Positions 3,001 to 15,413 of a stretch of 15,413 bases of DNA are shown here, one piece after another; the stretch's first letter is position 1; each line of letters opens with the position of its first letter. The notes under the pieces are model-generated. The model did no database searches. It worked only from the letters and a program-made list of their open reading frames with translations, and had not been told where the DNA came from. The DNA is from Candidatus Helarchaeota archaeon (GTDB lineage: Archaea; Asgardarchaeota; Lokiarchaeia; Helarchaeales; RDOG01), in NCBI GenBank assembly GCA_029838215.1, contig JALGVI010000068.1:1-15413 (forward strand), written 5' to 3'. The position numbers and the translations under genes were made by a program.

Positions 3001-5246
3001 AGTGGAATAAATTGAGAATCATACACCTTATCTCTTGGAGAATAATCCATCACGTGAAATTTCTGAATGCGATGGTTTGCATAATCGGTAATATAAATAT
3101 AGCCCTTGTAAGTAGCCAAGTCGATTGGCGTGTTAAATTGACCTGTCTTATTCCCTGATTCACCCCACTCGTTAAGATATCCTCCTGTCGTATTAAAAAT
3201 CTGGATATTATTGTTAATGCCAGCATCCCCTACATAAACATTGTCGAACTCATCAATTTCAATACCACAAGGTTTGGAAAAATTTCCCCATTCCAATAAA
3301 TAGTTCAAATTATTATCGTATTTGAATATTTTATTTAGTGCATCGTCAGTGATGTATACGTTGTCTACTTGATCAATAGCAATACCAATCACGTCATCGA
3401 CTGTATGGGTGGAGGTTTCATTAATAAGTGAACCCGTTTTATTGAATTTCTTAACTTTATTGTCATTAATTGTGGTAACAAATATATTATTATTAGAATC
3501 AATAGCAATTGCGGTAGGTCTACCTCCCACCGCCCAGCTCCCGACAAAGTTGCCTGAATTATCGTACTTTTTTATAACTTGTCCATCATAATCTCCAACA
3601 TAAACAATATTTTCTGAATCAATTGCTAACCCGGTAGTTGTCCCTCCGATAGCCCATTTCAAAACAAATGTTCCGTTTTCCGTAAACTTCTTCACATATT
3701 CATTATTTTCATCAGCAACATAAACATAACCTTGAGAATCAACATCTATCCCAAATGGCCACTGAAATTCGTCATCGCCCGTCCCTTCACTCCCCCACGA
3801 TTGAACAAAATCAATATCATCACGAAATTGAATTTTTCTGTAAAAAATGTCGTAATCAGATCCTGATCCAACATAATCTGCTGTATGATCTTCCCAAACT
3901 ATATGAACGATTCCTACATCTTCAACAGCTATTCTAGCGCAGATGGAAGAACAATTACTATTTTTTGAAATTAAATCCGTGTCATTATCGATTCCCTTCC
4001 AAACTTTCGTGTCTGAATCCCAATATTTATAGAATATGTCTGAATCCGTGCCTGCCCCAAAAATATCGGATTCATCCTGCCATGTGACGTGAACGTTCCC
4101 GTTAATGTCAACATCAATTGCTGGATGAGAAGAAGTAGCAGTACTCTCCGTTGAAATGACATCTGTTGAATTTATTTTACCGTTCCACTCATCAGTACTC
4201 GAATTTTTGAATTTATAGAAAATATTGTAATCTAACCCATATGAAGGTAAATTGTCATCCCAGACTAAATGGATATTTTCCAAATTGTCTATAACAATAT
4301 CAGGATTTCTTGAAGTCCCTGCTCCCGCAGAAATAACTTCAGTCAAAGTCCATTCTTTAGTTGTTGAGTTCCAGAATTTATAGAAAATGTCATAATCCGT
4401 TCCAGCACCATTGTAATCAGAAGAGTCAGACCAAGCTACGTGGACATTACCTCCTCCATCTACAGCAAGTGTAGGATAATATGAGTTTCCAGAACCTTCC
4501 GTGGAAACATTATCTGTTGAATTGATTTTTCCAGACCACAATTGTGTTGTATGATTTCTCATTCGATAAAGAATATCATTTTTTCCCATCGTGACACCTT
4601 CATACCATGCGACATGAACATTTCCATCCATGTCAACATCGATGACAGGAAATTTGGAAGATTCATTGCTTCCATCTGAAACCAGTTTGATATTTGTCCA
4701 AGAATTAGACGAAGCATTCCAACACCTATAATAAATGTCCTGATCTGTTCCAGAATTATTATAATCTTGCGTGTCGTTCCAAACAACGTGAATATTACCC
4801 TGAAAATCTACGAAAATGTCTGGAGATTCTGATACATTATTACTTTCTTCAGAGATCAAGTCTAGAGAATTTATTTTTCCACTCCATATTCCAGAACTGG
4901 AATTTCTGAACGTGTAAAATACATCACGATCCGAACCAGAACTGATTAAATTATTTGTATCGTCGAACCAAACAACGTGAATATTTCCTTGGGAATCAAG
5001 AGCGATATTTGGAGACCCGGATTCATCTGTACTAGAGTTTGACACCACCTCTGTTCCTGACCAATAAAATGCCGAAATATGAAATACTGGTGGGTTTTCG
5101 TCAGGCGTGCTTTGATAAAAACTTGTTGATTTATCAAACCGTTGGTAAAACCAACTAGGAAATGGCAAAAGAGCAAAATAAAATGAAAATGATAATAATA
5201 AGATAAAGCTCATGGCAAAAATCTTCCTTTTCGTTGATATAATCAT
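1..5246 (-). CDS. Giant secreted/cell-surface multi-beta-propeller repeat protein; partial, its C-terminus lies beyond the window start. Layout in protein order: signal peptide (MIISTKRKIFAMSFILLLSFSFYFALLPF), 7 x ~60-aa repeat with consensus P-x-I-x-V-D-x-x-G-N-[VI]-H-[VI]-V-W ... D-x-D-I-[FY]-Y, NHL repeats, a second 7 x ~47-aa repeat, SBBP-like beta-propeller repeats, Ig-like region.
   Basis: Manual translation of the minus strand gave an uninterrupted frame from the ATG at 5246 (an alternative ATG lies at 5213) to position 1. Spot-checks of the frame succeeded, for example TATSSHPAIDVDINGNVHVTW at 4080..4142 and ITDYANHRIQKFHV at about 3050. The ORF track shows no minus-strand ORF of 60 aa or more in this frame, which is expected for a frame open to the window edge with no in-window stop; an in-frame stop would have produced a listed ORF. 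All listed ORFs inside this span are short and in other frames. There is an in-frame upstream stop at 5268..5270. The SD-like motif GAAGGGA (5252..5258 on the minus strand) sits 6 nt before the ATG. The start is followed by a positively charged segment and a hydrophobic stretch, consistent with a signal peptide. NHL-type motifs are present (WPFGIDVDSQGYVYVAD, PTAIAIDSNNNIFVT, ANHRIQKF). SBBP-like motifs are present (DAFLVKFDLNGSEIWN, VFLVKFDKDGNQIWN, GFLVKYNATNGDQIWN). Confidence 0.8.
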   Translation of the reverse strand, partial: MIISTKRKIFAMSFILLLSFSFYFALLPFPSWFYQRFDKSTSFYQSTPDENPPVFHISAFYWSGTEVVSNSSTDESGSPNIALDSQGNIHVVWFDDTNNLISSGSDRDVFYTFRNSSSGIWSGKINSLDLISEESNNVSESPDIFVDFQGNIHVVWNDTQDYNNSGTDQDIYYRCWNASSNSWTNIKLVSDGSNESSKFPVIDVDMDGNVHVAWYEGVTMGKNDILYRMRNHTTQLWSGKINSTDNVSTEGSGNSYYPTLAVDGGGNVHVAWSDSSDYNGAGTDYDIFYKFWNSTTKEWTLTEVISAGAGTSRNPDIVIDNLENIHLVWDDNLPSYGLDYNIFYKFKNSSTDEWNGKINSTDVISTESTATSSHPAIDVDINGNVHVTWQDESDIFGAGTDSDIFYKYWDSDTKVWKGIDNDTDLISKNSNCSSICARIAVEDVGIVHIVWEDHTADYVGSGSDYDIFYRKIQFRDDIDFVQSWGSEGTGDDEFQWPFGIDVDSQGYVYVADENNEYVKKFTENGTFVLKWAIGGTTTGLAIDSENIVYVGDYDGQVIKKYDNSGNFVGSWAVGGRPTAIAIDSNNNIFVTTINDNKVKKFNKTGSLINETSTHTVDDVIGIAIDQVDNVYITDDALNKIFKYDNNLNYLLEWGNFSKPCGIEIDEFDNVYVGDAGINNNIQIFNTTGGYLNEWGESGNKTGQFNTPIDLATYKGYIYITDYANHRIQKFHVMDYSPRDKVYDSQFIPLIFNNITSIESAWYRTEDKMGWTSNSSMYFNGTVFINSTIAQFNRTRNHVQLFYIDTFGIERHIDTWFSTPSNNLTLIPEQLSTNAEITWSIPSSDLYIRENGQENIVWHGKGDENNFDIFFTQNSLGSFSTPTNISNSETYNDFFPHIASDDQNNITHIIWGGYDTDSEILYCNDSGGQFNTPVNISANSYWDSEPDIVVDSTGVVHITWTHDENGYSNIRYANDSTGQFEDFFNITENDNVSSHSNIVINSEDVIFVFYDDNSTGVSEIYVKNNSLGEFGEAFQITSNSIHNTFPNAYIDDADVIHLTWRGYDGNDGEIFYTNSSSNFKTVINVSANDFSDEYPNIVSDAQNVTHIVWTNEYGDLIYCNITSSSSKQFVLNSSTGYKRNAKIARNTNDMISLIWEGNQTGTFEIYRANLLNPTGFLSPLNTTYDHNLIPVIFKNVTNFNSCWFRIKNSAASYWSTNTTLAFNGTHYINSSIVEWPFGSSVIQIFANDSDNTIFLLNEIELEVTPNLFNTGNFYERWIQEADNTWGTSAYDFLYDADYANDTIYCCGYENSSGLHDAFLVKFDLNGSEIWNISYGDPTLNDLGTAIAISSDGEFIYLTGYDWIETTSRVFLVKFDKDGNQIWNVTWDKPELDEAYDVVVTPSNDIVYIAGVCRVLTTYSGFIAKFNSTSGEELWNRTFDTPADDLFTSIEYLNDTLIAVGPVNSNGWNGFLVKYNATNGDQIWNTTWVTIFEEYNGEDLLLIDDEEFYNIGGTIDSWLLNYNYSTGQQRWNRSWGGVLVDFPIGITKMNSQLCIVGRTSSFGTNTMDGFLLILDEYHETDEFMVWLGDGDDSFKRVISINESIYILGTTSSQGAGSLDLLYLKYTHDTQAPIIINETVNPSSPQEYLPNQNYTFSLNITDNLNVSHVLFEWLGENNTINYDETKGFAFNVSDLEAGSYDYRWYFSDAAGNWNSTLMKSYEILKSTPNLTLYVNGSVTNRTYCYFDEINV

Positions 5247-5323
5247 ATTATTCCCTTCTTTGGATTCTTAAGATTACCTCATCTTTTCTATTCAGTGACT
5301 TGGAATATTTTTCTTAAACAATA

Positions 5324-6070
5324 TTATCTATTAAATTCTCGATTCTGCATTTTTCTTTCATATTCTGGTTCAAGTATCCAACCTCGGATGTTAAAGGTGA
5401 TGACATCCAAGCCCCATTCTTGAAATTCCTCAACACTCTGAGCTCGTATTTCCGAGATTAATTCGTCTTTTTCGACACCCCCACGGATGACTACATGACC
5501 TGGATACTGACTGAGCTTATCCCTAAGGATATTTCTAATTGTATCAAGGATCCAAGCCTGTAAATCATCATGTGTATATAAATAGGGGTTCATTTTGTCT
5601 CGGATTGCTGTTTGTACGTCAATGTACTTTTCTTCTAGCTTCGCCTTCGTGATTTTTTCTCGTTTTTTTTCTCCTTCAAGAAAGACTTCCTCTTCAATAC
5701 CCTTTGTAAATTGAATTGACTGGGCGATTACGACATTACTATAGAAATTTAATGGATCGTTAATTTTAACCGTGATGTTGCCGTTACACCCCAAAACTGT
5801 GTCCTGGGTATACACTCCGTTACGTTGGGGGATACCCCAGTCAATCTTTAAATTCGTCTTTATCACGTAGATAATTTCGCTCCCAACTTTTTCTTTTTTT
5901 TGGAGTTTATGAGATCCACCTTCAAAGATCTCCTGATATTCACCATTTCTAAAGAAGAGTCCATATTCATAGGGTTTAACAATAAATCCCTTATCTTTTG
6001 TCGTAATAGGACGACGCCAAACAATTCCCTTATTCTGGGACAAATCCCAAGAAATTAGATTACTACCCAA
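5324..6070 (-). CDS. SPFH/band-7 (stomatin/flotillin-like, COG4260-like) domain protein
   Basis: 248-aa ORF with a TTG start at 6070, preceded by AAGGA about 10 nt upstream. The layout resembles the SPFH core: ...YVIKTNLKIDWGIPQRNGVYTQDTVLGCNGNITVKINDPLNFYSNVV matches the T.D...v.vd.vv.yrv.dp..f pattern, and ...LRDKLSQYPGHVVIRGGVEKDELISEIRAQSVEEFQEWGLDVITFNIRGWILEPEYERKM matches the wGi.v..v.I.di..p region. The gene begins 18 nt after the stop of the upstream same-strand gene. Confidence 0.6.
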   Translation of the reverse strand: MGSNLISWDLSQNKGIVWRRPITTKDKGFIVKPYEYGLFFRNGEYQEIFEGGSHKLQKKEKVGSEIIYVIKTNLKIDWGIPQRNGVYTQDTVLGCNGNITVKINDPLNFYSNVVIAQSIQFTKGIEEEVFLEGEKKREKITKAKLEEKYIDVQTAIRDKMNPYLYTHDDLQAWILDTIRNILRDKLSQYPGHVVIRGGVEKDELISEIRAQSVEEFQEWGLDVITFNIRGWILEPEYERKMQNREFNR

Positions 6071-6088
6071 ATTATCACATCCTTATGT

Positions 6089-7576
6089 TCATGATGGTTC
6101 TTTTAAATACCAGATTTCGCCTTTGGAGTGACTGGAATCGTGAACGAGAATCTTATTTTTTACCAACTCCTTCAGAGCATGCCGTGCTCGTTCTTGAGAC
6201 CAATTCAAAGATTTTATAATCATGGTAAGGGTTATCTTTCCTGTTTCGTTAATTAATTTTAGAATTGAATTCTGATCAGCTACTTGAAATTCATCTAAAA
6301 TGTGAGTAAACTCCTCCCTGAGTTGATTCGCCACGTTCTTCGCCTGATTCAACTCTGGCATGATTTGGATCCTCAGGTTGAGCAGTGTCGTGAGGTCTGA
6401 AACCGCTTTATTGATTTCTTGGATTAGGAGGGAAGTTTCTACCATATCTTCAAGTTGCTCCTCAAGCCGTGCAGATAAATTCAGTAAAATACTTGCTTGA
6501 ATAAAGAGAACGTTCATTATCTCGGCACTAATTCGCCTAACTTCCTTGTGTTTTATTTCTCGAATGATCAACTTCGTCAATTGAGTCTTCAAGGACGTCA
6601 CGCGGCTTCTCAGCTTATTGATTCGATTTCGATAATTTGCATTTTTGATAAAGTGCTTCATGGCTTTATTGAAGGAAACAATAGCTTGGCTCAGAATCGT
6701 TTGAACTTGTTGCTTGATTCGTTTTTCGTAGTCCTTTAGATCTTCACTCCTTTTAAAATCAACTTTGAGGAGCAAACCACTCTGCATTTTTATGCGCTCT
6801 ATAACTTGTCTGATCTGGTTTTCCTTCTGCTCTTGTTTCTCGATCTTATCTATGTATTGAACTATCGAAGTGAGAGGCTCCTTGAAAACAGAAGTGAGGA
6901 AAAAATCCTTGTAGAACTGGTTCCAGACGTTCTCATGCAGTTGATTGATCTCAGTTGAACGACTTGAAATCCAATTCGCAATCCGTGCTAACACAGTTTT
7001 ATCAAAGAATTCTCGTAGCTTGGTCGAATAGGACACATAGTCGTTAAATGGAAGCTGGTCCTTTTGGAATTCCGAAAAAAATTGGATTTGATCATGGAAA
7101 ATGAGTGCACTAACGAGTAGAACGGATATTAAAAATTGCAGTACCAACATTCTTAGATTCAATGGAAGGACGGTCGCATAGATCTCATTCAGAGAATTAA
7201 GTTGGAAGTCTCTATAAATACCTTTCTGGTATTCCTTTAGGCTTAAGAACAAGGGGCGCAAGAATTCAAGATATTCTCGTAACATCGTTGATTCCGCGGA
7301 TGTTAAATCAATCAAGCTCAAAATATATTTCAAATTCGTTATATAAAACGTGGAGGGAATTCCTGTTGTCCTGTCTTCTCGCGACTTATTAACCAACTGA
7401 TATTTTTCTAAGAGGTCCAAATCGGGACCTATCGTTTGTGGAGCCATTCCCAATATTTTGGAAATGCGTGACTTATTCTGTTCTGAGATGTATAACTCAA
7501 AAAGTATCTGCCTTAGTCGTGATATGCGGTCTCTTTGCATTTTTTTCAAGATCTGGGTAAAATCAGCGTCACTCAC
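6089..7576 (-). CDS. Hypothetical 495-aa protein with an N-terminal winged-helix/HTH-like region, a central predicted TM helix (LPLNLRMLVLQFLISVLLVSALIF), a long coiled-coil and a second C-terminal winged-helix-like region
   Basis: Long ORF with a GTG start at 7576, preceded by GAAGGGA (7581..7587 on the minus strand) 4 nt upstream; an alternative ATG lies at 7540. The N-terminal segment ISKILGMAPQTIGPDLDLLEKYQLVNK and the C-terminal segment ITLTMIIKSLNWSQERARHALKELVKNKILVHDSSHSKGEIWYLKE look like wHTH recognition units. The middle of the protein is rich in K/E/Q/L heptad-like sequence. No catalytic motif was recognised. Confidence 0.65.
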   Translation of the reverse strand: MSDADFTQILKKMQRDRISRLRQILFELYISEQNKSRISKILGMAPQTIGPDLDLLEKYQLVNKSREDRTTGIPSTFYITNLKYILSLIDLTSAESTMLREYLEFLRPLFLSLKEYQKGIYRDFQLNSLNEIYATVLPLNLRMLVLQFLISVLLVSALIFHDQIQFFSEFQKDQLPFNDYVSYSTKLREFFDKTVLARIANWISSRSTEINQLHENVWNQFYKDFFLTSVFKEPLTSIVQYIDKIEKQEQKENQIRQVIERIKMQSGLLLKVDFKRSEDLKDYEKRIKQQVQTILSQAIVSFNKAMKHFIKNANYRNRINKLRSRVTSLKTQLTKLIIREIKHKEVRRISAEIMNVLFIQASILLNLSARLEEQLEDMVETSLLIQEINKAVSDLTTLLNLRIQIMPELNQAKNVANQLREEFTHILDEFQVADQNSILKLINETGKITLTMIIKSLNWSQERARHALKELVKNKILVHDSSHSKGEIWYLKEPS

Positions 7577-7580
7577 GGAA

Positions 7581-7640
7581 TCCCTTCACCAATTTTAAAC
7601 GATATTCATATATACGATTCACTCATATATAAACCAATTG
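7581..7640 (-). promoter_or_regulatory. Promoter/leader of gene 6089..7576: tandem TCATATATA elements (plus strand 7603..7611 and 7621..7629; minus-strand reading GTATATATGA / TTTATATATGA), located 27..53 nt upstream of the GTG start, plus the GAAGGGA SD-like motif at 7581..7587
   Basis: Read directly in the sequence. The AT-rich TATA-like hexamers would serve either as an archaeal TATA box or as a bacterial -10 element. The RBS motif is identical to the one in front of the giant CDS. Confidence 0.3.
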
Positions 7641-7671
7641 GAATTCAAAATTTTTTAATCCCGAATAAGCA

Positions 7672-7866
7672 TTAACCAATTTCTCTTTTTAAATCTCTCA
7701 GGGAAAACGAGAAGAATTCTTCTATCGATGGGAATGACCGGTCTTCCCTACTCTCATCGTTGGTGTTTTTCTCTTTCTTTTGTTTCGCTCTTACTTGTCC
7801 TGCTTTGAAGCGTGTTGTGAGAATGAATAAAATGGTAGTATACGAGAAAGGGATATTTAGTGCCAT
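7672..7866 (-). CDS. Questionable small ORF (64 aa; hydrophobic N-terminus, K/E-rich C-terminus) inside the divergent intergenic region
   Basis: Present in the ORF track only. The ATG at 7866 has no SD-like motif upstream, and the ORF lies in a promoter/leader region of the downstream same-strand gene. It may be a spurious ORF over AT-rich DNA. Confidence 0.15.
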   Translation of the reverse strand: MALNIPFSYTTILFILTTRFKAGQVRAKQKKEKNTNDESREDRSFPSIEEFFSFSLRDLKREIG

Positions 7867-7889
7867 AAAAACTTAATTTGATCGGAAAA

Positions 7890-7910
7890 TTGCAATATTT
7901 ACGGTTGCAA
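7890..7910. promoter_or_regulatory. Candidate operator: TTGCAA-N9-TTGCAA (two self-palindromic hexamers) in the divergent intergenic region upstream of the HTH-gene cluster
   Basis: The sequence ttgcaatatttacggttgcaa was read directly. Three XRE-type HTH domains are encoded immediately downstream, which makes a palindromic operator plausible. No experimental support. Confidence 0.15.
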
Positions 7911-8088
7911 GTGTTCATTTTGTTGTTGATGTATCTGGTTGTTTCATTCTACGAAGAAATTTTTATCATATCTTTTGATTTCACGAACCTTCCAGATATA
8001 AAATTTCTAATTATTCTTGCCTGACAATCTTACACGAAACCAAACATTTTTAAACAAATAATATGATGATCATCCAGATGTAAAAAAT

Positions 8089-8973
8089 ATGTTACATTCC
8101 AAAAAAAAATTACATGGAAAGAAGTTGAATGGCATGGAAATGTCAACAAAATTCACTCAAGAACAAGGCATTGAAAAAGTCTTGGCAAAAAAAGAAACGC
8201 TAAAAGCGTTCTTGTTATCCGGTTTAATCGCTCCCATCACGTGCCTGATTACCTGTGGCGTGCTTTGGGGGATTGAATTAGATCCAACCAGTGCAACGTT
8301 GCCCCTGAATTTATTTCTACTCTTACTGGGATTCGTACTCATTTTCGTTGGAATGGTTCCAATCTTCGTTGTAACCCTAATTGTTGGGGTTTACATGGTC
8401 AAGTATGTCAAAACATTCTCATACCGCTTGACGAATAACCACGTGGAAGTCAAGCACGGCGTCTTTACAAAGGAAAAAAACATGATCCCGTATTCCCGAA
8501 TCCAGAACATCAACGTGGTCAACGGAATATTTGACCGCTTGTTCGGCGTGTTCACGTTAAAAATCGAGACGGCAGGAACATCTGGAACCGAACAAAAAAC
8601 CGCCGAGGGACACATTCCGGGCGTGAAAAACCCGCAGGAATTCGAGGCGCAATTAAAACAATTGCTTGATAAATATAGCGTCCTTCCATCGGGACTCGAA
8701 GAAAAGATCTTTAAGCCGCAGGAATTGGCATTCGATAACTTTGTCTCCTATATTCTATCAAAAATGAGGGATAAGGATGACATCTTGAAGACGAAGATCA
8801 CAGCAATTCGGGAAAAAATGAATATGGGCGTTCAGGAACTAGCCGAAAAAGTAGGAGTCAAGCCCGAAACCATCGAGCTCTTGGAAGCGGGTAGATATAC
8901 ACCCTCACTTTCACTGGCTTACAAGATCGCCAGGGAACTAAATGCAAGCATCGAAGAAATCTTCATTCTATAA
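8089..8973 (+). CDS. Membrane-anchored bPH_2 (bacterial PH, YdbS/YdbT-like, PF03703) domain protein fused to a C-terminal XRE/Cro-C1-type HTH
   Basis: 294-aa ORF. Two hydrophobic helices are present (FLLSGLIAPITCLITCGVLWGI and LFLLLLGFVLIFVGMVPIFVVTLIVGVYMV). They are followed by YSYRLTNNHVEVKHGVFTKEKNMIPYSRIQNINVVNGIFDRLFGVFTLKIETAGTSG, which matches the bPH_2 pattern (Y.lt...l....G.l.r....ip..rIq.v...q....r..gl..l.i.TAG). The C-terminal ITAIREKMNMGVQELAEKVGVKPETIELLEAGRYTPSLSLAYKIARELNASIEEIF is a canonical HTH_3. The start is uncertain: ATG at 8089, or ATGs at 8134 or 8140 (MEMSTKF). Confidence 0.7.
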   Translation: MLHSKKKLHGKKLNGMEMSTKFTQEQGIEKVLAKKETLKAFLLSGLIAPITCLITCGVLWGIELDPTSATLPLNLFLLLLGFVLIFVGMVPIFVVTLIVGVYMVKYVKTFSYRLTNNHVEVKHGVFTKEKNMIPYSRIQNINVVNGIFDRLFGVFTLKIETAGTSGTEQKTAEGHIPGVKNPQEFEAQLKQLLDKYSVLPSGLEEKIFKPQELAFDNFVSYILSKMRDKDDILKTKITAIREKMNMGVQELAEKVGVKPETIELLEAGRYTPSLSLAYKIARELNASIEEIFIL

Positions 8974-8996
8974 GTTTTTTTCATTTTTATCTGCCA
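8974..8996 (+). terminator. T-rich tract (gtttttttcatttttatc) immediately after the stop of 8089..8973; possible oligo-T terminator or attenuator
   Basis: Read directly in the sequence. There is no strong hairpin. Oligo-T terminators are typical of archaea, but this may simply reflect AT-rich DNA. Confidence 0.2.
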
Positions 8997-9398
8997 ATGC
9001 AGGGTGAAACAGTGCGACTACGAAGAAAATTGGTCTCAAACATGAAAAAATTGCGGGCTGAGAAGAAAATCACCCAAGAACAATTGGCCGAAGCCATCGG
9101 CATCACGCGACAAACAATTTCCTATCTCGAAAAAGGAGAATACAATCCATCGCTTAAAATAGCTCACGACATTGCCAAATTCTTCGATAAAGCCATTGAT
9201 GAAGTCTTTCAATACGAGCCCATCCTGAAAATAAAACGTGAACAATTCAATCTCTCTCAAGATCAACTCGCAACCCTGATCGGAGTAAACGTGAAAGAGA
9301 TCATCAAGCTGGAGAATGAAGAATTCGACGAAATTCCCGTTTTTGCAACGAAACTGGCTCAGCAACTGAATTGCACGCTAGATGATTTATTCGAATGA
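8997..9398 (+). CDS. Tandem double XRE-family HTH (two HTH_3 domains) transcriptional regulator
   Basis: 133-aa ORF. The first domain is MKKLRAEKKITQEQLAEAIGITRQTISYLEKGEYNPSLKIAHDIAKFFDKAIDEVF, a textbook Cro/C1 signature (Q...LA...G.....IS..E.G...P). The second is IKREQFNLSQDQLATLIGVNVKEIIKLENEE...ATKLAQQLNCTLDDLF. The canonical family N-terminus (MKKLR...) suggests the true start may be the ATG at 9043 rather than 8997. Confidence 0.75.
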   Translation: MQGETVRLRRKLVSNMKKLRAEKKITQEQLAEAIGITRQTISYLEKGEYNPSLKIAHDIAKFFDKAIDEVFQYEPILKIKREQFNLSQDQLATLIGVNVKEIIKLENEEFDEIPVFATKLAQQLNCTLDDLFE

Positions 9399-9435
9399 TC
9401 AAATAATGTTGCTATAGATTTAAATCTCAGGAAAT

Positions 9436-9457
9436 GGATGAAACACCATCTTTTTTT
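9436..9457 (+). terminator. Short stem (GGATG-aaacac-CATC) followed by T7; candidate intrinsic or oligo-T terminator after the double-HTH gene
   Basis: Read directly in the sequence at 9436..9457. The stem is only 4-5 bp, so this is weak. Confidence 0.25.
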
Positions 9458-9532
9458 CTCAGAAATTGATTGCGTTATTGTTCCGTGCTCATAAATAAGC
9501 ATTGAAGTAAATATATTAAATATAGAAAATTA

Positions 9533-9799
9533 ATGAGAGAAATGATGATGAGTAAATTCAAGCGAATTGTTCGTGATCCCGAAATTTGTGGAGGACAACC
9601 GACTATTAAAGGCACTCGCGTGTTGGTTTTGGACATTCTGGATTGGATGAAAGAAGGAAAAGACTTTAATGAAATAATATCGAATTTTCCATCCATAACT
9701 CGTGAAGACATTCAGGAAATTATTGCTTATGCAAAGGAAATGATTGCTGGTGAAGTCATCATCTACGGATCTAAAGAAGGCAAGGTTTCTATTGGATGA
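9533..9799 (+). CDS. DUF433 (PF04255) family protein, the predicted antitoxin-like partner of DUF5615/PIN-like proteins
   Basis: 88-aa ORF. IVRDPEICGGQPTIKGTRVLVLDILDWMKEGKDFNEIISNFPSITREDIQEIIAYAKE matches the DUF433 hallmark (dP.i.gG.P.i.GTRi.V..il..l..G.s.eeI...yP.lt.edI..al.yA). The start may be the ATG at 9548 (MSKFKR...), which is preceded by GAGAGA, instead of 9533. An unusual ~17-aa C-terminal tail overlaps the next gene. Confidence 0.75.
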   Translation: MREMMMSKFKRIVRDPEICGGQPTIKGTRVLVLDILDWMKEGKDFNEIISNFPSITREDIQEIIAYAKEMIAGEVIIYGSKEGKVSIG

Positions 9800-10115
9800 G
9801 AACGTGCCGATAAAACTTAAACGCGTGTTTGATGAGCGTGGAATCTCCTGCTTTACCATTAAGGAAAAAGGCTGGTTGGGGATTAAAAATGGTGAATTAT
9901 CGCTTGAGGTAAATGAAAAGGATTATATCCTACTTACGAGAGACAAAGACTTCACATTCCTTTGGCAAAAATTCCAAATAAAAGTTATTTATTCTGCCAT
10001 TGAACCTGCGATACTTGAATTCATTAAATCTAAAGTGATTTTTTTGCTCGATAATTGGGAGCATGATATATCAAAACCATTTTTACAAAAAGATACTATC
10101 CGATTTTGGAAATGA
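9744..10115 (+). CDS. DUF5615 (PF18480; PIN-like/Mut7-C-related) putative toxin partner of DUF433
   Basis: RFLLDENVPIKLKRVFDERGISCFTIKEKGWLGIKNGELSLEVNEKDYILLTRDKDFT matches the DUF5615 consensus (kfLlDEn.p..l...L...G..v..v.e.g..G..D.el...a.e...iLlT.DkDF). The frame has no ATG before the domain. The candidate starts are TTG at 9744 or GTG at 9750, which gives a 50-56 nt overlap with the DUF433 gene in the +1 frame. Confidence 0.7.
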   Translation: MLVKSSSTDLKKARFLLDENVPIKLKRVFDERGISCFTIKEKGWLGIKNGELSLEVNEKDYILLTRDKDFTFLWQKFQIKVIYSAIEPAILEFIKSKVIFLLDNWEHDISKPFLQKDTIRFWK

Positions 10116-10193
10116 CATTAACTTAAAACAGGCTAAGCCTAATTGAATTTTGTATTGGACTAATATGATCAATAGAGTAATTGTCAATCCAAT

Positions 10194-11066
10194 TTATTTC
10201 TTTTTATATTTAATTGCATCAGAAGGACAAATATCAACGCATCGCATGCATTGATAGCACTCCGATTTTTTACTGTCTTCAAATGCTTCCCCTGTTGGAC
10301 AAACCTTTTCACATGCTTTACATTGAATGCATTTATCAGTTCTACGAAGTTTAAAGATGCTAAATCGACTCGTCAACCAAGCAATGGTTCCAAAAGGACA
10401 AAGAAGCCTGCACCACGGGCGATAAACAAAGACACTTGATACCAAAATAATGATAAATAAAATTATTGGGATCAATATCACTTGTAAATTTAAGATATTA
10501 GTTGAAATCGTAAATGCATTAAAGGGGTTTATTATTGAGAATAAAGCGAAAGACCAAATGAGTGTCAAAACAATACTACCGATGAATATACACAATCTAA
10601 AATAATTTGCGAATTTTTCAGGAATCTCGATAACGTATTTATGCTTCTTCACTTTTTTACCAATAATTAATTTTGAAGTTAATTCTTGCACGGACCCTAA
10701 AGGACAAACATAACTGCAGAATGTTCGCCCGAAGATTAATGTCGAAACGGTAAATACCATTAAGATCACTAAAAATACAATCATGGTCGGGAGAATCATT
10801 AAAGCCGTGTTTGGATTGTGAACGGCATTAGACATGATTAAAAGCACTTGTTGAAAGGCAAACACGGGATGAGCTCCCGATCCCAATATAAATCCCGGAA
10901 CAATGATTGAAGCCAATAAAATGACAATTGAAACTTTTTTGTTCATTTTATCCTTAAACAAAAGGATTACTGCAATTGCGAAAAGAATGACATAAGAAAT
11001 CAGTATTGGTATCATCATTTGCGGATTTAGAAAGGGACTATTTGCCAACATGGATACCATCTTCAT
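10194..11066 (-). CDS. Membrane-bound polyferredoxin of the NapH/MauN/YccM type (COG0348-like): multiple TM helices, two C-x-x-x-C-P-x-G motifs (CSYVCPLG, CRLLCPFG) and two C-terminal 4Fe-4S ferredoxin motifs (CIQCKACEKVCP, CYQCMRCVDICP)
   Basis: 290-aa ORF with an ATG at 11066, preceded by AGGAGA (11069..11074 on the minus strand). The cysteine motifs were read directly. The architecture is characteristic of NapH-like integral membrane iron-sulfur proteins. Confidence 0.8.
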   Translation of the reverse strand: MKMVSMLANSPFLNPQMMIPILISYVILFAIAVILLFKDKMNKKVSIVILLASIIVPGFILGSGAHPVFAFQQVLLIMSNAVHNPNTALMILPTMIVFLVILMVFTVSTLIFGRTFCSYVCPLGSVQELTSKLIIGKKVKKHKYVIEIPEKFANYFRLCIFIGSIVLTLIWSFALFSIINPFNAFTISTNILNLQVILIPIILFIIILVSSVFVYRPWCRLLCPFGTIAWLTSRFSIFKLRRTDKCIQCKACEKVCPTGEAFEDSKKSECYQCMRCVDICPSDAIKYKKK

Positions 11067-11322
11067 TATCTCCTATTAAAATTTTACACTTGATCATTTC
11101 AATGATATAGAAAAATAGGAAATGGTCATGGTCATTACTAATCTTTTATGGGTAATTTAAATTTTTTATATTGTTCAACTACCTCTAAAACTACTTTATC
11201 CATTTGTACCTTTTCTTGTTTTGATAGTTTAGGAGTTCAAAGCTCGTTTCTTTTAATCCATTTGATTGGTTTCATTCTAATTCCCGGTAATTCATTTAAA
11301 TAATCCGATCTAAAAATCGTTT

Positions 11323-12669
11323 TTATTCTATTTTTCTCACAAAATTTGCGAAGTAAACTGTCTTTTTTGGATTTTCTCCTGTAATTTGGATGAGAACCTC
11401 TTCGTCATTCAATAATTTTATACCAGCTCTTATGAACACGATTTTACCATCGGGATGTCTAGCAATATACGTTCCTTTTGGTGTTTGTTCCATTATTTTT
11501 ACTTCAATTATGTTATTTGCTTGTTTTTTCTCAGGGAAAAATTGAATGTCATCAACAACCGGGATAAGTGATTCGGCAAGACCTCTACTTGAAGAAATTG
11601 CGAGAATGATCTTAATATCGTGTTCTTTTTTGACGTCTTTTATAAAATTCAAGAAGTCTTGGTCTTTTGTACCTAAAATGAGAATGTTTGGAGGTGATTT
11701 TGTTTTTAATTTCTCTCGAATTTCATCCCGCATTAAATAATCAATATCTTTATGACTTTCTAAAATTTTATACCCAAGTCGGGAGATCTCCTTTTTATCA
11801 ATAGAACAATCCTGAATCTTGGTCAAATAATAAATATTGGCATTGGTATCCATTGAGTAAGCATAATCTCGAACTTGCTTCAAGTCTAATCGATCATTGT
11901 AATTTTTTCCTAAGGAATTGGGTCCGTCTATCATTACCAAAACGAGGTCTTTAATGCGTGCTTTCTGATATCGTTGTTTAAGCTGAAATGTTTTTTCTAA
12001 TTGTTTTAGAGAGGGTGATGATGCTTGTTGTATCTTCTTTAAATCTTTGCAAAGAAACCAGAAAAATCCATCTAAATAAACAAGATCTGTCCCGATTTTA
12101 TCAGCAAGAGCAAGTAATAATTCATTAAATATTTCATAACTCTTCCCTAAATTACTTCGTAGCTTGAAATTAACGCCTAGAACCGAAATTGCTTCTATTG
12201 ATTTTCTATTCATTACTCCGTATCGATTTGGATCCTGAATCATCAATAACCCTGTTGAAATGTTCTTTCCTAAACCTCGAACGTGAGCTGTTCCGCTTCT
12301 CTTCACGACTTTATTGATCCGTTCGATAATTGGTTGATTCTCATCAAACAAAGTTTTCAAGGCATTTCTTAAACGGTCCATATCTTCAACTGCTTTATTT
12401 CCCACACGGGGTAAACCAGTCCAAGAAAAATTCGTGCGAAATTGTAGAAAATCTAAAAAATCGTATTTTTGCAAAAAATCTAAGCGTTTTACTTGAAATA
12501 CTTCACGGAATCGCTCATAAACCTTTTTTCTATCCTGAATCCAAATCTCTCCCGTTTCCCAATAGATTCCACTAACATCAATTGGAGTAATTAAGAATTG
12601 GTTAAACCTTTCCTTAATGTATTTAATATCAAAAATGTCTTCTATTACTTTAAGATTGAAACCATTCAA
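11323..12669 (-). CDS. 448-aa protein: unrecognised ~230-aa N-terminal domain, then an NYN (PF01936, PIN-like RNase) domain, then a C-terminal TRAM (PF01938) RNA-binding domain
   Basis: TTG start at 12669 with GAGG/AGGT 4-12 nt upstream. NYN strand 1 is DLVLVMIDGPNSL (the D-G-x-N signature). The later NILILGTKDQDFLNFIKDVKKEHDIKIILAISSSRGLAESLIPVVDD matches the NYN pattern ivLvSgDsDF.pl...l...G..V.v.g....s..L...aD. The C-terminal KGTYIARHPDGKIVFIRAGIKLLNDEEVLIQITGENPKKTVYFANFVRKIE looks like a TRAM barrel (dG..vF......pGe.v.v.I...k...a.a..v). It begins 58 nt downstream of the HEPN gene on the same strand. Confidence 0.7.
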   Translation of the reverse strand: MNGFNLKVIEDIFDIKYIKERFNQFLITPIDVSGIYWETGEIWIQDRKKVYERFREVFQVKRLDFLQKYDFLDFLQFRTNFSWTGLPRVGNKAVEDMDRLRNALKTLFDENQPIIERINKVVKRSGTAHVRGLGKNISTGLLMIQDPNRYGVMNRKSIEAISVLGVNFKLRSNLGKSYEIFNELLLALADKIGTDLVYLDGFFWFLCKDLKKIQQASSPSLKQLEKTFQLKQRYQKARIKDLVLVMIDGPNSLGKNYNDRLDLKQVRDYAYSMDTNANIYYLTKIQDCSIDKKEISRLGYKILESHKDIDYLMRDEIREKLKTKSPPNILILGTKDQDFLNFIKDVKKEHDIKIILAISSSRGLAESLIPVVDDIQFFPEKKQANNIIEVKIMEQTPKGTYIARHPDGKIVFIRAGIKLLNDEEVLIQITGENPKKTVYFANFVRKIE

Positions 12670-12727
12670 GATACCTCGCCTCTCGATCTTTTAACATCAT
12701 TATTTATCATTTATCTCTTTTTCAGAA

Positions 12728-13756
12728 TTATATAAGATCTTCGAAATTATACTTCCAACTATTGGAATAAATTTCAAAATAATCGATCCAAAGACTTCTC
12801 ACGGTGTCATCCTTTGACTCTCTCATTAATTCATTAATTTTATAATCAAAAAGGGTTGTGAACCATGTCATTATATTGGAGAGTACTTGAAATTTTTCAT
12901 GTATTTGCTTATCACGGAATTTCGTTTTATAAGCTTCGAATTCGAGTTTTTCTGGGTTTATATAATAATTACCGTGAGCTAGATCATTCCTCACGCGGTA
13001 ATCAAAGATATCGAGGTATTTGTTTTTCGCCTGTTCTTGATTATCATTCTTAAGTGGTATTCTTAAAAACCCAGGTAAAAGGTATCGATATAGATGGTTT
13101 GCATTAATTGTATCTTTCTCTTTTGCGATCTTATGCTGATTTTGTTTTTCCCAAATTTTTTTAATTAGATAAAAAACAAAGTGCGCAAAAGATTCATATG
13201 AATTGAAATAGAGCGATAGATGAATGTACAACTTCAGATTGGGTCTTTTTTCAAGATCCTCACTCCAGTGTCTTCGGACAATACCCGCAATATGATTTAT
13301 CTGATATATCCTTTTCCTATATAGCTGATTTTCTCGATCCTTAAATAGATATTTAAAAATAGCTGAATTGTTCTTATTAAAACTCTCATAAAATTCAATA
13401 AAAAGCTTTTCAAAACTCTTCTCAATCGTTTCAACATCATATCCTGCCGTTTCTAAATCTTCCCGGGCACTAACTATTAGATGGCTTATATATTTATTTA
13501 ACTCATTTATATCATTGAGGAGATCCTCCATTTCCAGTGATTCTTTTTTCTCATTTAGCTCACGAAGAAATGGTTTGAATTTCTCTTCGAAGATGTTTTT
13601 ATCTAAAAGATTATATTCTATTTGAAGCCGATACTCCCTCATTTTCTGGCACCATTTTTGATTTCGATAATTTATTTTGTTGTCTAAGTGCTGTAAGTAA
13701 TAAATAGTCCTCATTAATGGTATCAAAAAACTTTCTGATGCGGATGTTTCTTTCAA
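12728..13756 (-). CDS. HEPN-superfamily protein with an R-x4-H motif (RVRNDLAHGNYY); AbiD/AbiF (Abi_2)- or DUF4145-like putative abortive-infection RNase
   Basis: 342-aa all-helical-looking K/E/L-rich ORF. The motif F-D-Y-R-V-R-N-D-L-A-H-G was checked on the DNA at about 12962..12997. The annotated start is a TTG at 13756, which lies 22 nt after the upstream gene's stop and has no obvious SD. An alternative ATG lies at 13714. The RN..AH form of the HEPN motif is typical of Abi_2/AbiD/AbiF and related families. Confidence 0.6.
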   Translation of the reverse strand: MKETSASESFLIPLMRTIYYLQHLDNKINYRNQKWCQKMREYRLQIEYNLLDKNIFEEKFKPFLRELNEKKESLEMEDLLNDINELNKYISHLIVSAREDLETAGYDVETIEKSFEKLFIEFYESFNKNNSAIFKYLFKDRENQLYRKRIYQINHIAGIVRRHWSEDLEKRPNLKLYIHLSLYFNSYESFAHFVFYLIKKIWEKQNQHKIAKEKDTINANHLYRYLLPGFLRIPLKNDNQEQAKNKYLDIFDYRVRNDLAHGNYYINPEKLEFEAYKTKFRDKQIHEKFQVLSNIMTWFTTLFDYKINELMRESKDDTVRSLWIDYFEIYSNSWKYNFEDLI

Positions 13757-13778
13757 TTCGAAATTTATGACCTATAAT

Positions 13779-15413
13779 TCATGAGTTCTGAAAAAACAAT
13801 ATATTTTCAGTAAAAGTCTTGCGGTAATCCATGTTGCTACTTTTTTGGAGATCAACTTCAACTTTTTTTAATTTCAAATGTGTATAACCAATGCTAGTTA
13901 AAATTAATCGAATGAATTCGGCATTAGGGATGAAAAACTCTTCTTTTTTAATTTTCCAAAGATGTACGTTACTAACCACCAAGCAAATAATACCTGATTT
14001 TCTCATTTTCGTTTTTAATTTTAAGAAAATGCTTTTTAAATCATTGTAATAATGAAATGTAAGAATTCCTCTTTCCAAATCAATTTTACTAATTTTTTTT
14101 AAAAAATTGGAAATTCTTTCGGGCAAATTCTCAAGCGATTTAGTCAATTCTTCATGTTTTAGAGTATTATGTTTCCAGCCAATTGATGAATTCTGCAATT
14201 TTTTGAAACTCTTTTCATTGAACTCGGGATAGAGATGAAAAATCGAATTCTTCACCATGTTCAGATAATCAACAGTATTGAGATAAGGGGGAGAAGAGAT
14301 AATGAAATCAAAGACGGGTAATTTTTCACTCTTAATTTCTATCAGATCCTCACAAATGATTATTGGTTTTTTTACATTTGGAGTCCTTTTTAGGAACCGC
14401 ATTACGTTTTCATGTAAAAATAGCGTCGAATAATTTTTTATCAAGACTTTTTCAAGTTGGCTAATCAAATTCTTTGCTTTTTTCCTTTGTAGATGATTTA
14501 TTGCTTCGCTCAGGGAGATTTTAAAAAACAGTTTCACCCACTCTGATCCTTGAATGGATTTTTCGCCTGAATCTTCTATAATGGCATTGATAACCTCTTG
14601 AATTATCTCTATTGAGATTTCTTCTTGATCGTGCAGCTTGCAAAGATTTATTATTTGCGAATCCCTCTTTTCTCTATAATTATCCAATTCTTGTAGCAAT
14701 TTTATTAACGTTATCCTTAAATTCGATGTTTTTACGGTAAAATCTGTTTTTAATAGACTTATATCGACAAATAACGGCACGTGATCGATTCCGTGTACTT
14801 GCACGCCTAATGAACTTGCATCGATCAAAAAAGTTCCGCTACCCACGAAAGGATCCAAGAGAACCTGATCTTGAGTGATTTTAAGAACGTTTTGTAGAGC
14901 TCTACCCATTCTTGGGAAAGCTTTTGCCTTAAAAAAATGGAAATCGTGTGTAAGATGGTTTTTTCCTCTTCTATAATGCCAGTCCAGAAAATCCCCCATG
15001 TATGTCTTGCCTTGTCCTATATTCGGCACGTAATTAAAAACGGCATGAAGATGAATTATCGATTGAATGAGATAGAATAGCAGTTCATTCTCCTTGGCTT
15101 CAAGCTTAGATTGTAAGTCGTGTTTCCTTCCCCCACTAATATAGGAACCCCACATCTTTAAAACTTCAAGTGATGTTTCCAAGAAAACAGAATCTGGAAT
15201 TATCCTCAATAGTTTAATTTCTTCATCCACGAACAGTCGAGTTGAAGGATTGACCAAATCACTTGAAAGCAATTCTTCTGTCTCAACATTACGGCATCCT
15301 TTTTTGAGTGAAAATTCGAGTTTTTTTCTCGATTTCTCATTTGTTAAATAAGATTCTATAATGTCTACAATTTTCAAAGTTGCTCTTTCGATTTTAAATG
15401 AATTAAGAACGAC
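13779..15413 (-). CDS. SAM-dependent nucleic-acid amino-methyltransferase-like protein (motif I LLDPFVGSGTFLIDAS, motif IV FDFIISSPPY). N-terminus uncertain: the frame is still open at the window edge.
   Basis: The ORF track gives 13779..15377 (532 aa) with a TTG start. I checked that the same frame contains no stop between 15377 and 15413 (codons ...VVLNSFKIERAT-L), so the gene may start outside the window. FxGxG followed about 190 aa later by (D/N/S)PPY matches the order of alpha-class DNA amino-MTases, but the GSGT-F-LIDA context also resembles UPF0020/THUMP-type RNA m2G/m6A MTases. Stop codon TGA at 13779..13781. Confidence 0.7.
   Translation of the reverse strand, partial: VVLNSFKIERATLKIVDIIESYLTNEKSRKKLEFSLKKGCRNVETEELLSSDLVNPSTRLFVDEEIKLLRIIPDSVFLETSLEVLKMWGSYISGGRKHDLQSKLEAKENELLFYLIQSIIHLHAVFNYVPNIGQGKTYMGDFLDWHYRRGKNHLTHDFHFFKAKAFPRMGRALQNVLKITQDQVLLDPFVGSGTFLIDASSLGVQVHGIDHVPLFVDISLLKTDFTVKTSNLRITLIKLLQELDNYREKRDSQIINLCKLHDQEEISIEIIQEVINAIIEDSGEKSIQGSEWVKLFFKISLSEAINHLQRKKAKNLISQLEKVLIKNYSTLFLHENVMRFLKRTPNVKKPIIICEDLIEIKSEKLPVFDFIISSPPYLNTVDYLNMVKNSIFHLYPEFNEKSFKKLQNSSIGWKHNTLKHEELTKSLENLPERISNFLKKISKIDLERGILTFHYYNDLKSIFLKLKTKMRKSGIICLVVSNVHLWKIKKEEFFIPNAEFIRLILTSIGYTHLKLKKVEVDLQKSSNMDYRKTFTENILFFQNS

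Follow-up and report, generated by a model that had tools for sequence, protein, structure and literature searches.

Do the three adjacent genes at the right-hand end of contig JALGVI010000068.1 form one defence system, or do they belong to separate immunity modules that lie next to each other? The stretch analysed here, which we call the window, comprises positions 1 to 15,413 of this contig (15,413 nucleotides, nt), and the genes in question encode an amino-methyltransferase (open reading frame 1, ORF1), a HEPN-like protein (ORF2) and a protein that ends in NYN and TRAM domains (ORF3). A preliminary description of the window had read them as a tight three-gene operon in which the methyltransferase (MTase) serves as the sensor or immunity partner of two RNases. 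We lean, on balance, towards three independent modules standing side by side: a restriction-modification (R-M) cassette, a solo HEPN RNase and a modification-dependent nuclease that resembles the END nucleases. The main interest of the locus rests on the last of these, ORF3.

The ORF list places the three frames on the minus strand of the window, at 13779-15377, 12728-13756 and 11323-12669. They are real genes and not chance ORFs, since they are called by both JGI and NCBI, have homologues and, in the case of the MTase, differ between strains by 12 synonymous and 4 non-synonymous changes; from these differences between the window and contig L001, ORF1 is taken to be functional and appears to be under purifying selection. 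L001 (15,685 base pairs, bp) and L002 are two near-identical longer contigs of sister samples on which the exact ORF2 product is also recorded, and window coordinates convert to L001 coordinates as 23643-p, p being the position in the window. The peptides quoted in the preliminary description are all present in the translations (LLDPFVGSGTFLIDAS at 14814-14861, SSPPY at 14283-14297, RNDLAH at 12974-12991, IDGPN at 11917-11931 and GTKDQDF at 11653-11673), and its assignments of amino-MTase, HEPN, NYN and TRAM domains agree with our own.

The features of ORF3, all on the minus strand, are as follows:

11323..12669, minus strand: ORF3, 448 amino acids (aa), three domains, a predicted inactivated Ogg/EndoIII-like sensor followed by an NYN nuclease and TRAM
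12040..12552, minus strand: helix-hairpin-helix (HhH) domain of the Ogg2/EndoIII type, residues ~40-210
12262-12276, minus strand: hairpin V-R-G-L-G-K, its HhH G-x-G invariant in the family
12208-12222, minus strand: YGVMN with the invariant Asn N154, in place of the Ogg catalytic Asp (AIIDRH)
11548..11943, minus strand: NYN (PIN-like) domain, residues 243-374, with the acidic motifs IDGPN, ESHKDID and GTKDQDF
11332..11517, minus strand: TRAM β-barrel nucleic-acid-binding domain, residues 385-446

The N-terminal ~170 residues of ORF3, listed in the preliminary description as an unknown domain, have no match in Pfam. By tblastn they match the N-terminal domains of plasmid-encoded McrB-like, NucS-like and PD-(D/E)xK proteins with E-values from 6e-23 to 4e-3; among these are a Salinibacter McrB-like protein (MrcB_N + AAA_5), a Paracoccus NucS-like nuclease whose gene lies between hsdM and hsdS, and a Chlorohelix EVE + HARE-HTH + AAA_5 protein whose gene has those of an N6 methylase and a DUF2357 protein as neighbours. 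Further matches are found in small archaeal or bacterial proteins with PD-(D/E)xK C-termini. When a profile of nine such N-domains was compared with the PDB, the six best matches were all archaeal Ogg glycosylases (8.8e-4 to 0.06; 9o01 at 8.8e-4 and 3fhg at 3.6e-3), and the Methanothermobacter homologue of the domain matches PF21790 OGG at 1.6e-4 (21.9 bits, below the 27-bit cutoff). The HhH Lys is shifted by one position in this family relative to Ogg. Together with the Asn that replaces the catalytic Asp, these matches point to an inactivated Ogg/EndoIII-like sensor, the "iEndoIII" of END nucleases, and its presence would make ORF3 a self-contained sensor-nuclease of the END type. A NADAR/YbiA-like match at the extreme N-terminus was weak (E 1.2) and was dropped.

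The remainder of ORF3 is recognised by profiles close to their thresholds. PF01936 NYN scores 19.8 bits against a cutoff of 24.2 (E 1.2e-3; 23.3 bits for the homologue P0004), TIGR00288 matches at E 1e-4, and TRAM (PF01938) falls just below its Pfam cutoff, its region reading as a five-stranded β-barrel that resembles the TRAM of RumA, RlmCD and MiaB. The motifs IDGPN, ESHKDID and GTKDxD are invariant across the three ORF3 homologues and supply the acidic active-site residues expected of a NYN domain (D-G-x-N after strand 1; S/T-x-D-x-D-F). ORF3 itself is present in the protein collection as P0002, although exact look-ups with the window's ORF3 and with its truncated ORF1 gave no entry, and its only relative with the full architecture is P0003 (56% identity). 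In P0004 (L005 1362-4148) the NYN-TRAM cassette of ORF3 stands behind a different N-domain, Clp_N, which fits a modular effector. Scans of metagenomes and viral contigs for the ORF3 family, and tblastn of ORF3 against phages, found nothing.

The first gene of the three looks different once the DNA beyond the window is taken into account. The MTase reading frame has no stop codon from 15377 to the end of the window, so ORF1 is truncated by the window edge:

13779..15413, minus strand: ORF1, amino-methyltransferase, 3' 545 codons (the complete gene, L001 7891-9864, encodes 657 aa; its first 112 codons fall outside the window)
14814..14861, minus strand: motif I LLDPFVGSGTFLIDAS, the S-adenosylmethionine-binding loop, aligned to motif I of Trm11-type and β-class DNA MTases
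14283..14297, minus strand: motif IV SSPPY, the catalytic loop of exocyclic-amino methyltransferases (TSPPY in the relatives P0006 and P0007)

Directly upstream of ORF1 and on the same strand, the longer contigs carry a gene for a 417-aa restriction endonuclease (REase) and one for a 117-aa AbrB-like protein, and a tight operon of three genes is thereby contradicted; same-strand adjacency at the end of a contig can look like an operon, and here the missing upstream genes altered the reading of the methyltransferase. The 417-aa protein matches the PADLOC model REase_II PDLC03572 (E 1.7e-31, 311 of 371 profile positions), and ORF1 follows its gene after 121 nt. The 117-aa protein is weakly AbrB/MazE-like (E ~1e-3), and upstream of its gene a 285-aa β-class N6_N4 MTase is transcribed divergently, with a Dam-like D12 MTase beside it. 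A 22-bp palindrome, TCTGTGGTG-NTAT-CACCACAGA, occurs in exactly two copies in L001, at 6453-6474 and 7851-7872, which is 42 nt before the ATG of the REase and 19 nt before the ATG of ORF1, with a chance expectation of zero. Standing in front of both the REase and the MTase genes, it ties ORF1 to the restriction gene, and no copy lies within the window and hence none before ORF2 or ORF3. Most simply, the palindrome would be a shared operator through which cutting and protection are co-regulated, and the AbrB-like protein its putative controller; it could also be a pair of RNA hairpins. By tblastn of the REase against phages and against plasmids, nothing was found.

The Dam-like MTase is an intact 307-aa frame in L002, and in L001 it has lost an estimated ~55-60 bp near the 5' end (L001 ~4330-4390 compared with L002 ~100-170), which leaves a 231-aa ORF; one methylase thus appears to be inactivated in one strain.

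Considering (i) the adjacent REase, (ii) the divergent MTase, (iii) the AbrB-like regulator and (iv) the paired palindrome, the most probable role of ORF1 is that of a restriction-modification methylase. It may be the second MTase of a Type II cassette, with the 417-aa REase as its presumed cognate enzyme. ORF1 consists of an N-terminal domain of unmatched fold (~260 aa), motif X/I, a helical insert of ~170 aa and SPPY, and has both amino-MTase motifs, I (FxGxG) and IV ((S/D/N)PPY). Only Type II MTase models derived from REBASE match motif I, the insert and SPPY together, among them PADLOC MTase_II PDLC03322, which aligns to residues 264-625 (E 3.6e-21). PF01170 is above its cutoff (36.8 bits) in the motif I region only. 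On a Pseudanabaena plasmid, a relative of ORF1 has a second MTase on one side and an HNH endonuclease on the other. With a REase 121 nt away, a shared palindrome and this plasmid relative, the proposal that the MTase is the sensor or immunity partner of two RNases loses its footing.

A further reading of ORF1 is that of a tRNA or rRNA amino-methyltransferase of the Trm11/RlmL type, in which case the three genes would act in RNA modification and turnover and not in defence. It draws on the best PDB and NCBIfam sequence matches of ORF1, which are tRNA m2G10 methyltransferases (TIGR01177; Trm11, 5e71), on the PF01170 score, and on the position of P0006 near a gene for an RNA 3'-phosphate cyclase. 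The N-terminal domain (residues 1-260, L001 7891-8670, of which the window holds residues 114-260 at about 14634-15413) is shared by the distant relatives P0006 and P0007, as is TSPPY, and opens in all three with a β-strand and "L-x-L-A-x-x-E-L" ("LQLAEEEL" in ORF1), an opening that may resemble the N-termini of THUMP-type MTases. The domain itself has no match in Pfam or the PDB, however, and the tRNA-MTase matches are restricted to ~55 residues around motif X/I, a stretch common to β-class DNA MTases, while every full-length match is to a Type II DNA MTase model. As ORF1 moreover adjoins a REase in an island of TIR, R-M and toxin-antitoxin genes, we regard the RNA-MTase reading as very improbable. 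The plasmid relative, which belongs to a classical R-M operon, lacks the N-terminal domain. Two candidates near the relatives were rejected: the 301-aa gene after P0006 is not homologous to ORF2, and the fragment upstream of P0007 is not REase-like.

The second gene belongs to a small unannotated family:

12728..13642, minus strand: ORF2, a 304-aa helical protein with a C-terminal HEPN-like domain
12974..12991, minus strand: RNDLAH, the candidate HEPN catalytic motif (R256/H261 in the 342-aa numbering, R218/H223 in the 304-aa numbering)

An exhaustive HMMER search gave 17 members of 186-330 aa, and a word-index search returned no protein besides ORF2 itself. The two members with a named source, from Ca. 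Borrarchaeum weybense and a Ca. Helarchaeota metagenome-assembled genome (MAG), are both from Asgard archaea. Judged by these relatives of a single gene, the host of the window is probably an Asgard archaeon as well. Every one of the 16 full-length members keeps the R, N, A and H of L-R-N-x-I-A-H-S, and the invariance of RNxxxH, the usual form of the HEPN motif R-x4-6-H, is what makes ORF2 quite probably a HEPN protein. Profile searches bore out the domain calls of the preliminary description unevenly: PF01170 was found in ORF1 and NYN and TRAM in ORF3 came just below their cutoffs, and ORF2 has no match in Pfam, PADLOC or NCBIfam, including no curated HEPN-clan profile. The ORF2 family profile found no HEPN chain among PDB sequences. 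The AlphaFold2 (AF2) model of ORF2 is of good quality (pLDDT 83.6, pTM 0.86), and Foldseek of this model against the PDB gave non-significant helical proteins only. ORF2 has no Walker A motif and no ATPase profile match. A scan of the genome collection with a narrowed ORF2 alignment returned Borrarchaeum only; scans of metagenomes and viral contigs for the family and tblastn against plasmids returned nothing.

Whether the three genes belong together can be judged from where their homologues lie. The contexts read comprised five other ORF2 homologues (two of them on contigs too short to be informative), two ORF3 homologues and three MTase relatives. Neither the trio of MTase, HEPN and NYN/TRAM genes nor any pair from it is repeated there; no ORF2 homologue adjoins an ORF3 homologue, and no R-M gene was seen beside an ORF2 homologue. 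Homologues of the trio are never neighbours in this small sample, an outcome that the preliminary description had itself named as speaking against its proposal. In four distinct genomes (Borrarchaeum, the Helarchaeota MAG and two other metagenome contigs) the ORF2 family is syntenic with a cluster of epimerase, GT4, radical-SAM-SPASM and O-methyltransferase genes, and these four loci have neither the MTase nor the NYN-TRAM gene. The P0003 locus, that of the closest ORF3 homologue, carries OLD/GajA-like, PIN, DarG-like, HD and integrase genes. From these different settings of ORF2 and ORF3 homologues we conclude that the modules are probably independent.

Several single loci deserve mention. 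In Ca. Borrarchaeum weybense JAHQJS010000007.1 (L012 6001-7899), the ORF2 homologue is followed after 147 nt by a same-strand gene for RNase III with a dsRBD and then by a Cas12f1-like TNB/OrfB fragment. P0004 lies directly before a Ser/Thr kinase gene resembling the PD-T4-6/mad6 models. Genes with the inactivated Ogg domain stand beside or inside R-M or MTase loci in three of seven plasmid contexts, an association of sensor and methylase that is biologically reasonable, as hypermodification offers invaders a way around R-M. On the Paracoccus seriniphilus plasmid NZ_CP067132.1 (L018, 270694-278272), the gene for the Ogg-like sensor with its NucS-type nuclease, an END-type gene, is embedded between hsdM and hsdS in a Type I R-M operon that also has an FRG-domain gene.

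The spacers between the genes bear on a second alternative, that ORF2 and ORF3 are a two-gene module apart from the R-M genes:

13643..13778, minus strand: MTase-ORF2 spacer, with the alternative ORF2 starts 13756 (TTG) and 13714 (ATG) inside it; sequence read directly
12670..12727, minus strand: ORF2-ORF3 spacer of 58 nt, with GAGGCGAGGT 4 nt before the TTG start of ORF3; sequence read directly

The gaps of 22 nt and 58 nt given in the preliminary description hold if the first in-frame TTG starts are taken. ORF2 has three possible starts, the TTG at 13756 (342-aa numbering), the ATG at 13714 called by NCBI (328 aa) and the ATG at 13642 called by JGI (304 aa), and the N-termini of its homologues agree with the last, with which the MTase-ORF2 gap becomes 136 nt instead of 22 nt. 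Within this larger spacer are a T6 run and, ahead of ATG 13642, the TATA-like AAAATAAATT (at a distance of 26-35 nt) and GGTG (at 8 nt), elements that may serve as terminator or promoter. As the 58-nt spacer contains no T-run, co-transcription of ORF2 and ORF3 is plausible, and in the two-gene alternative the promoter for both would lie within the 136 nt that follow the MTase; ORF3 would sense modified nucleic acid, and its HEPN partner would be an effector, an amplifier or a counterpart of the toxin/antitoxin kind. The two spacers suit this alternative, as do the same-strand genes just upstream of P0003, which encode two PIN proteins, predicted RNases, and the RNase III/dsRBD gene after the Borrarchaeum ORF2 homologue. 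ORF2 and ORF3 homologues are adjacent in no other context, however, the gaps at the other loci are 147-185 nt, and the END nucleases tested to date act as single proteins (PMC12191111). We therefore consider a dedicated ORF2-ORF3 pair unlikely.

The third alternative is the one closest to the preliminary description, in which MTase, HEPN and NYN-TRAM are one integrated system and the MTase or its R-M complex holds the two RNases latent, as in PrrC/EcoprrI. The genes are adjacent and all on the same strand, HEPN genes linked to R-M systems are recurrent, in at least 16 clades (Anantharaman et al. 2013, PMC3710099), and sensor genes of the ORF3 type recur beside MTases or R-M systems. Against such a system stand the unrepeated trio, the R-M cassette, which is Type II-like and not a Type Ic hsd operon, and the palindrome, which links ORF1 to the REase and is absent before the two downstream genes; in addition, ORF2 lacks a PrrC-like NTPase domain and a Walker A motif, and ORF3 has a sensor domain of its own. 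An integrated system is in our judgement decidedly unlikely. A looser logic of the PrrC kind, an R-M system with a HEPN back-up, is possible; it is a described theme (PMC3710099), and it is not conserved for the ORF2 family.

Returning to three independent modules, we propose the following model, in which activities are predicted from domain identities, motifs, neighbourhoods and the lack of a conserved three-gene linkage. ORF1 would be the DNA amino-methyltransferase of a Type II R-M cassette, the other parts of which lie just past the window. If ORF2 behaves as other HEPN proteins do, its dimers would create an R-N-x3-H RNase site, and the protein would serve as an RNase that is toxic or causes abortive infection. 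In ORF3, the inactivated HhH domain would search nucleic acid for hypermodified, non-canonical bases, cleavage of DNA or RNA would fall to the NYN domain, and TRAM would contribute single-strand binding. The resulting logic would be layered: R-M kills unmodified invaders, ORF3 kills those that escape R-M with hypermodified DNA, and ORF2 is the back-up, with any cross-talk between the modules being conjectural.

A bolder version of the ORF3 part, which we hold to be doubtful, is that ORF3 is the first END-type enzyme to carry its inactivated sensor on an RNA-type NYN+TRAM cassette, and that it cuts RNA, single-stranded or transcribing nucleic acid and not duplex DNA. It may then work with the HEPN RNase as a two-gene, RNA-directed, Type IV-like Asgard module placed after the R-M cassette, where it would catch hypermodified viruses.

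Several points weigh against the reading as independent modules. The homologue contexts are few and many are on short contigs, and the absence of linkage is thus weakly powered. Given the strong Shine-Dalgarno sequence in the 58-nt spacer, ORF2 and ORF3 may be co-expressed and cooperate. For ORF1, the tRNA-methyltransferase matches described above have to be set against its role as a DNA MTase, and the cassette already holds a divergent MTase, so that a second-MTase role is assumed. For ORF3, the basis of the Ogg-like assignment is transitive homology together with E-values between 1e-3 and 1e-4; the HhH/Ogg signal was at first E 0.083, was lost with a two-sequence profile and became consistent once the plasmid homologues were added. 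The AF2 model of ORF3, built from a three-sequence alignment, is poor (pLDDT 51), and the fold assignment of the N-domain thus stays at the level of sequence. Finally, NYN and TRAM are classically RNA-directed, an uneasy fit with a role in DNA restriction.

The surroundings agree with a role in defence, as the preliminary description had held: Thoeris-like TIR genes, R-M genes and a DUF433/DUF5615 pair lie near the trio, and the right end of the window is a probable part of a defence island. At L001 1000-3802, three ThsB-like TIR genes stand beside an LD_cluster/SLOG-type gene, with an ISL3 transposase fragment at the start of the contig; together, the TIR and SLOG genes resemble a Thoeris-type module that adjoins the R-M cassette. 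The DUF433 gene (84 aa) and the DUF5615/PIN_10-like gene that follows it, a putative toxin-antitoxin pair, occupy window 9545-10115 on the plus strand, and to their left are two Xre-type helix-turn-helix genes, at 8089-8973 (with a bPH_2 domain) and 8997-9398. Elsewhere in the window, the minus strand encodes a 495-aa coiled-coil protein with a C-terminal winged helix (6089-7576) that weakly matches EAP30/Vps36 (E 0.0025, below threshold), a match that would be interesting in an Asgard host. Also on the minus strand, an open frame of more than 1755 codons (1-5267) runs off the left end; its NHL, PQQ_2 and SGL β-propeller repeats suggest a very large protein, probably secreted or exposed at the surface.

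The description of END nucleases dates only from 2025 and covers three effector types, with all testing done in bacteria. If an archaeal enzyme combines the sensor with NYN and TRAM, the known modularity of modified-base sensing would be wider, and the question would arise whether such sensors can direct the cleavage of RNA or single-stranded DNA. The reading would also imply hypermodified genomes in the viruses that infect the host lineage, probably Asgard archaea. The 17-member ORF2 family, for its part, is a clean unannotated target for the study of HEPN function in archaea.

How, then, does the locus compare with known systems? The upstream cassette resembles Type II R-M systems with a controller and C-box operators in its set of divergent MTase, small DNA-binding protein, REase and MTase and in its repeated 22-bp palindrome. 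It differs from them in that the controller is weakly AbrB/MazE-like and not an Xre-type C protein, in having up to three MTases, in the extra N-terminal domain of ORF1, and in a palindrome that could act as an RNA hairpin. ORF2 was rejected as the toxin of a HEPN-MNT toxin-antitoxin pair, no MNT nucleotidyltransferase gene being found nearby; it differs from such toxins (8xdj, 7ae2, 5yep) in its size of 304 aa, a large extra N-terminal helical region and a β-hairpin after the motif, and has no sequence-level similarity to them. As in PrrC/EcoprrI and other R-M-linked HEPN RNases, the gene for an R-N-x3-H HEPN protein comes immediately after R-M genes within a defence island; the differences are that ORF2 has no ABC/NTPase domain, that the cassette is Type II-like as opposed to Type Ic (hsd), and that the linkage is not conserved, since ORF2 relatives sit in a glycosyltransferase/radical-SAM setting free of R-M genes.

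In Bacillus YacL, a PIN-fold nuclease is followed by TRAM. ORF3 has the same order of PIN-fold nuclease and TRAM as such PIN/TRAM proteins and the TIGR00288 NYN proteins, and departs from them in its NYN subtype, its added sensor domain and its place in a defence island instead of a housekeeping context.

The closest likeness of ORF3 is to the END nucleases, in which an inactivated EndoIII/Ogg-like sensor is fused to PLD, NucS-like PD-DExK or McrB-like modules (PMC12191111, bioRxiv 2025), and of which END-PaCF1 and END-Mag were shown experimentally to restrict phages with hypermodified DNA (PMC12191111). Compared by description, ORF3 likewise has an N-terminal HhH domain that lacks the catalytic Asp and a nuclease in one polypeptide, homologues of its N-domain carry the same NucS-like and McrB-like partners as those listed in PMC12191111, and S. 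solfataricus Ogg (3FHG) is among the top relatives of END-Mag as of the ORF3 domain. NYN, PIN and HEPN are absent from the description of END nucleases in PMC12191111, and the term END or iEndoIII was not found in the other literature searched. As NYN is not among the effectors reported there, ORF3 is a new effector combination for the iEndoIII sensor: its effector is NYN + TRAM and not PLD, PD-(D/E)xK or McrB GTPase, its sensor is N-terminal, its host is probably archaeal, and its substrate may be RNA or single-stranded DNA.

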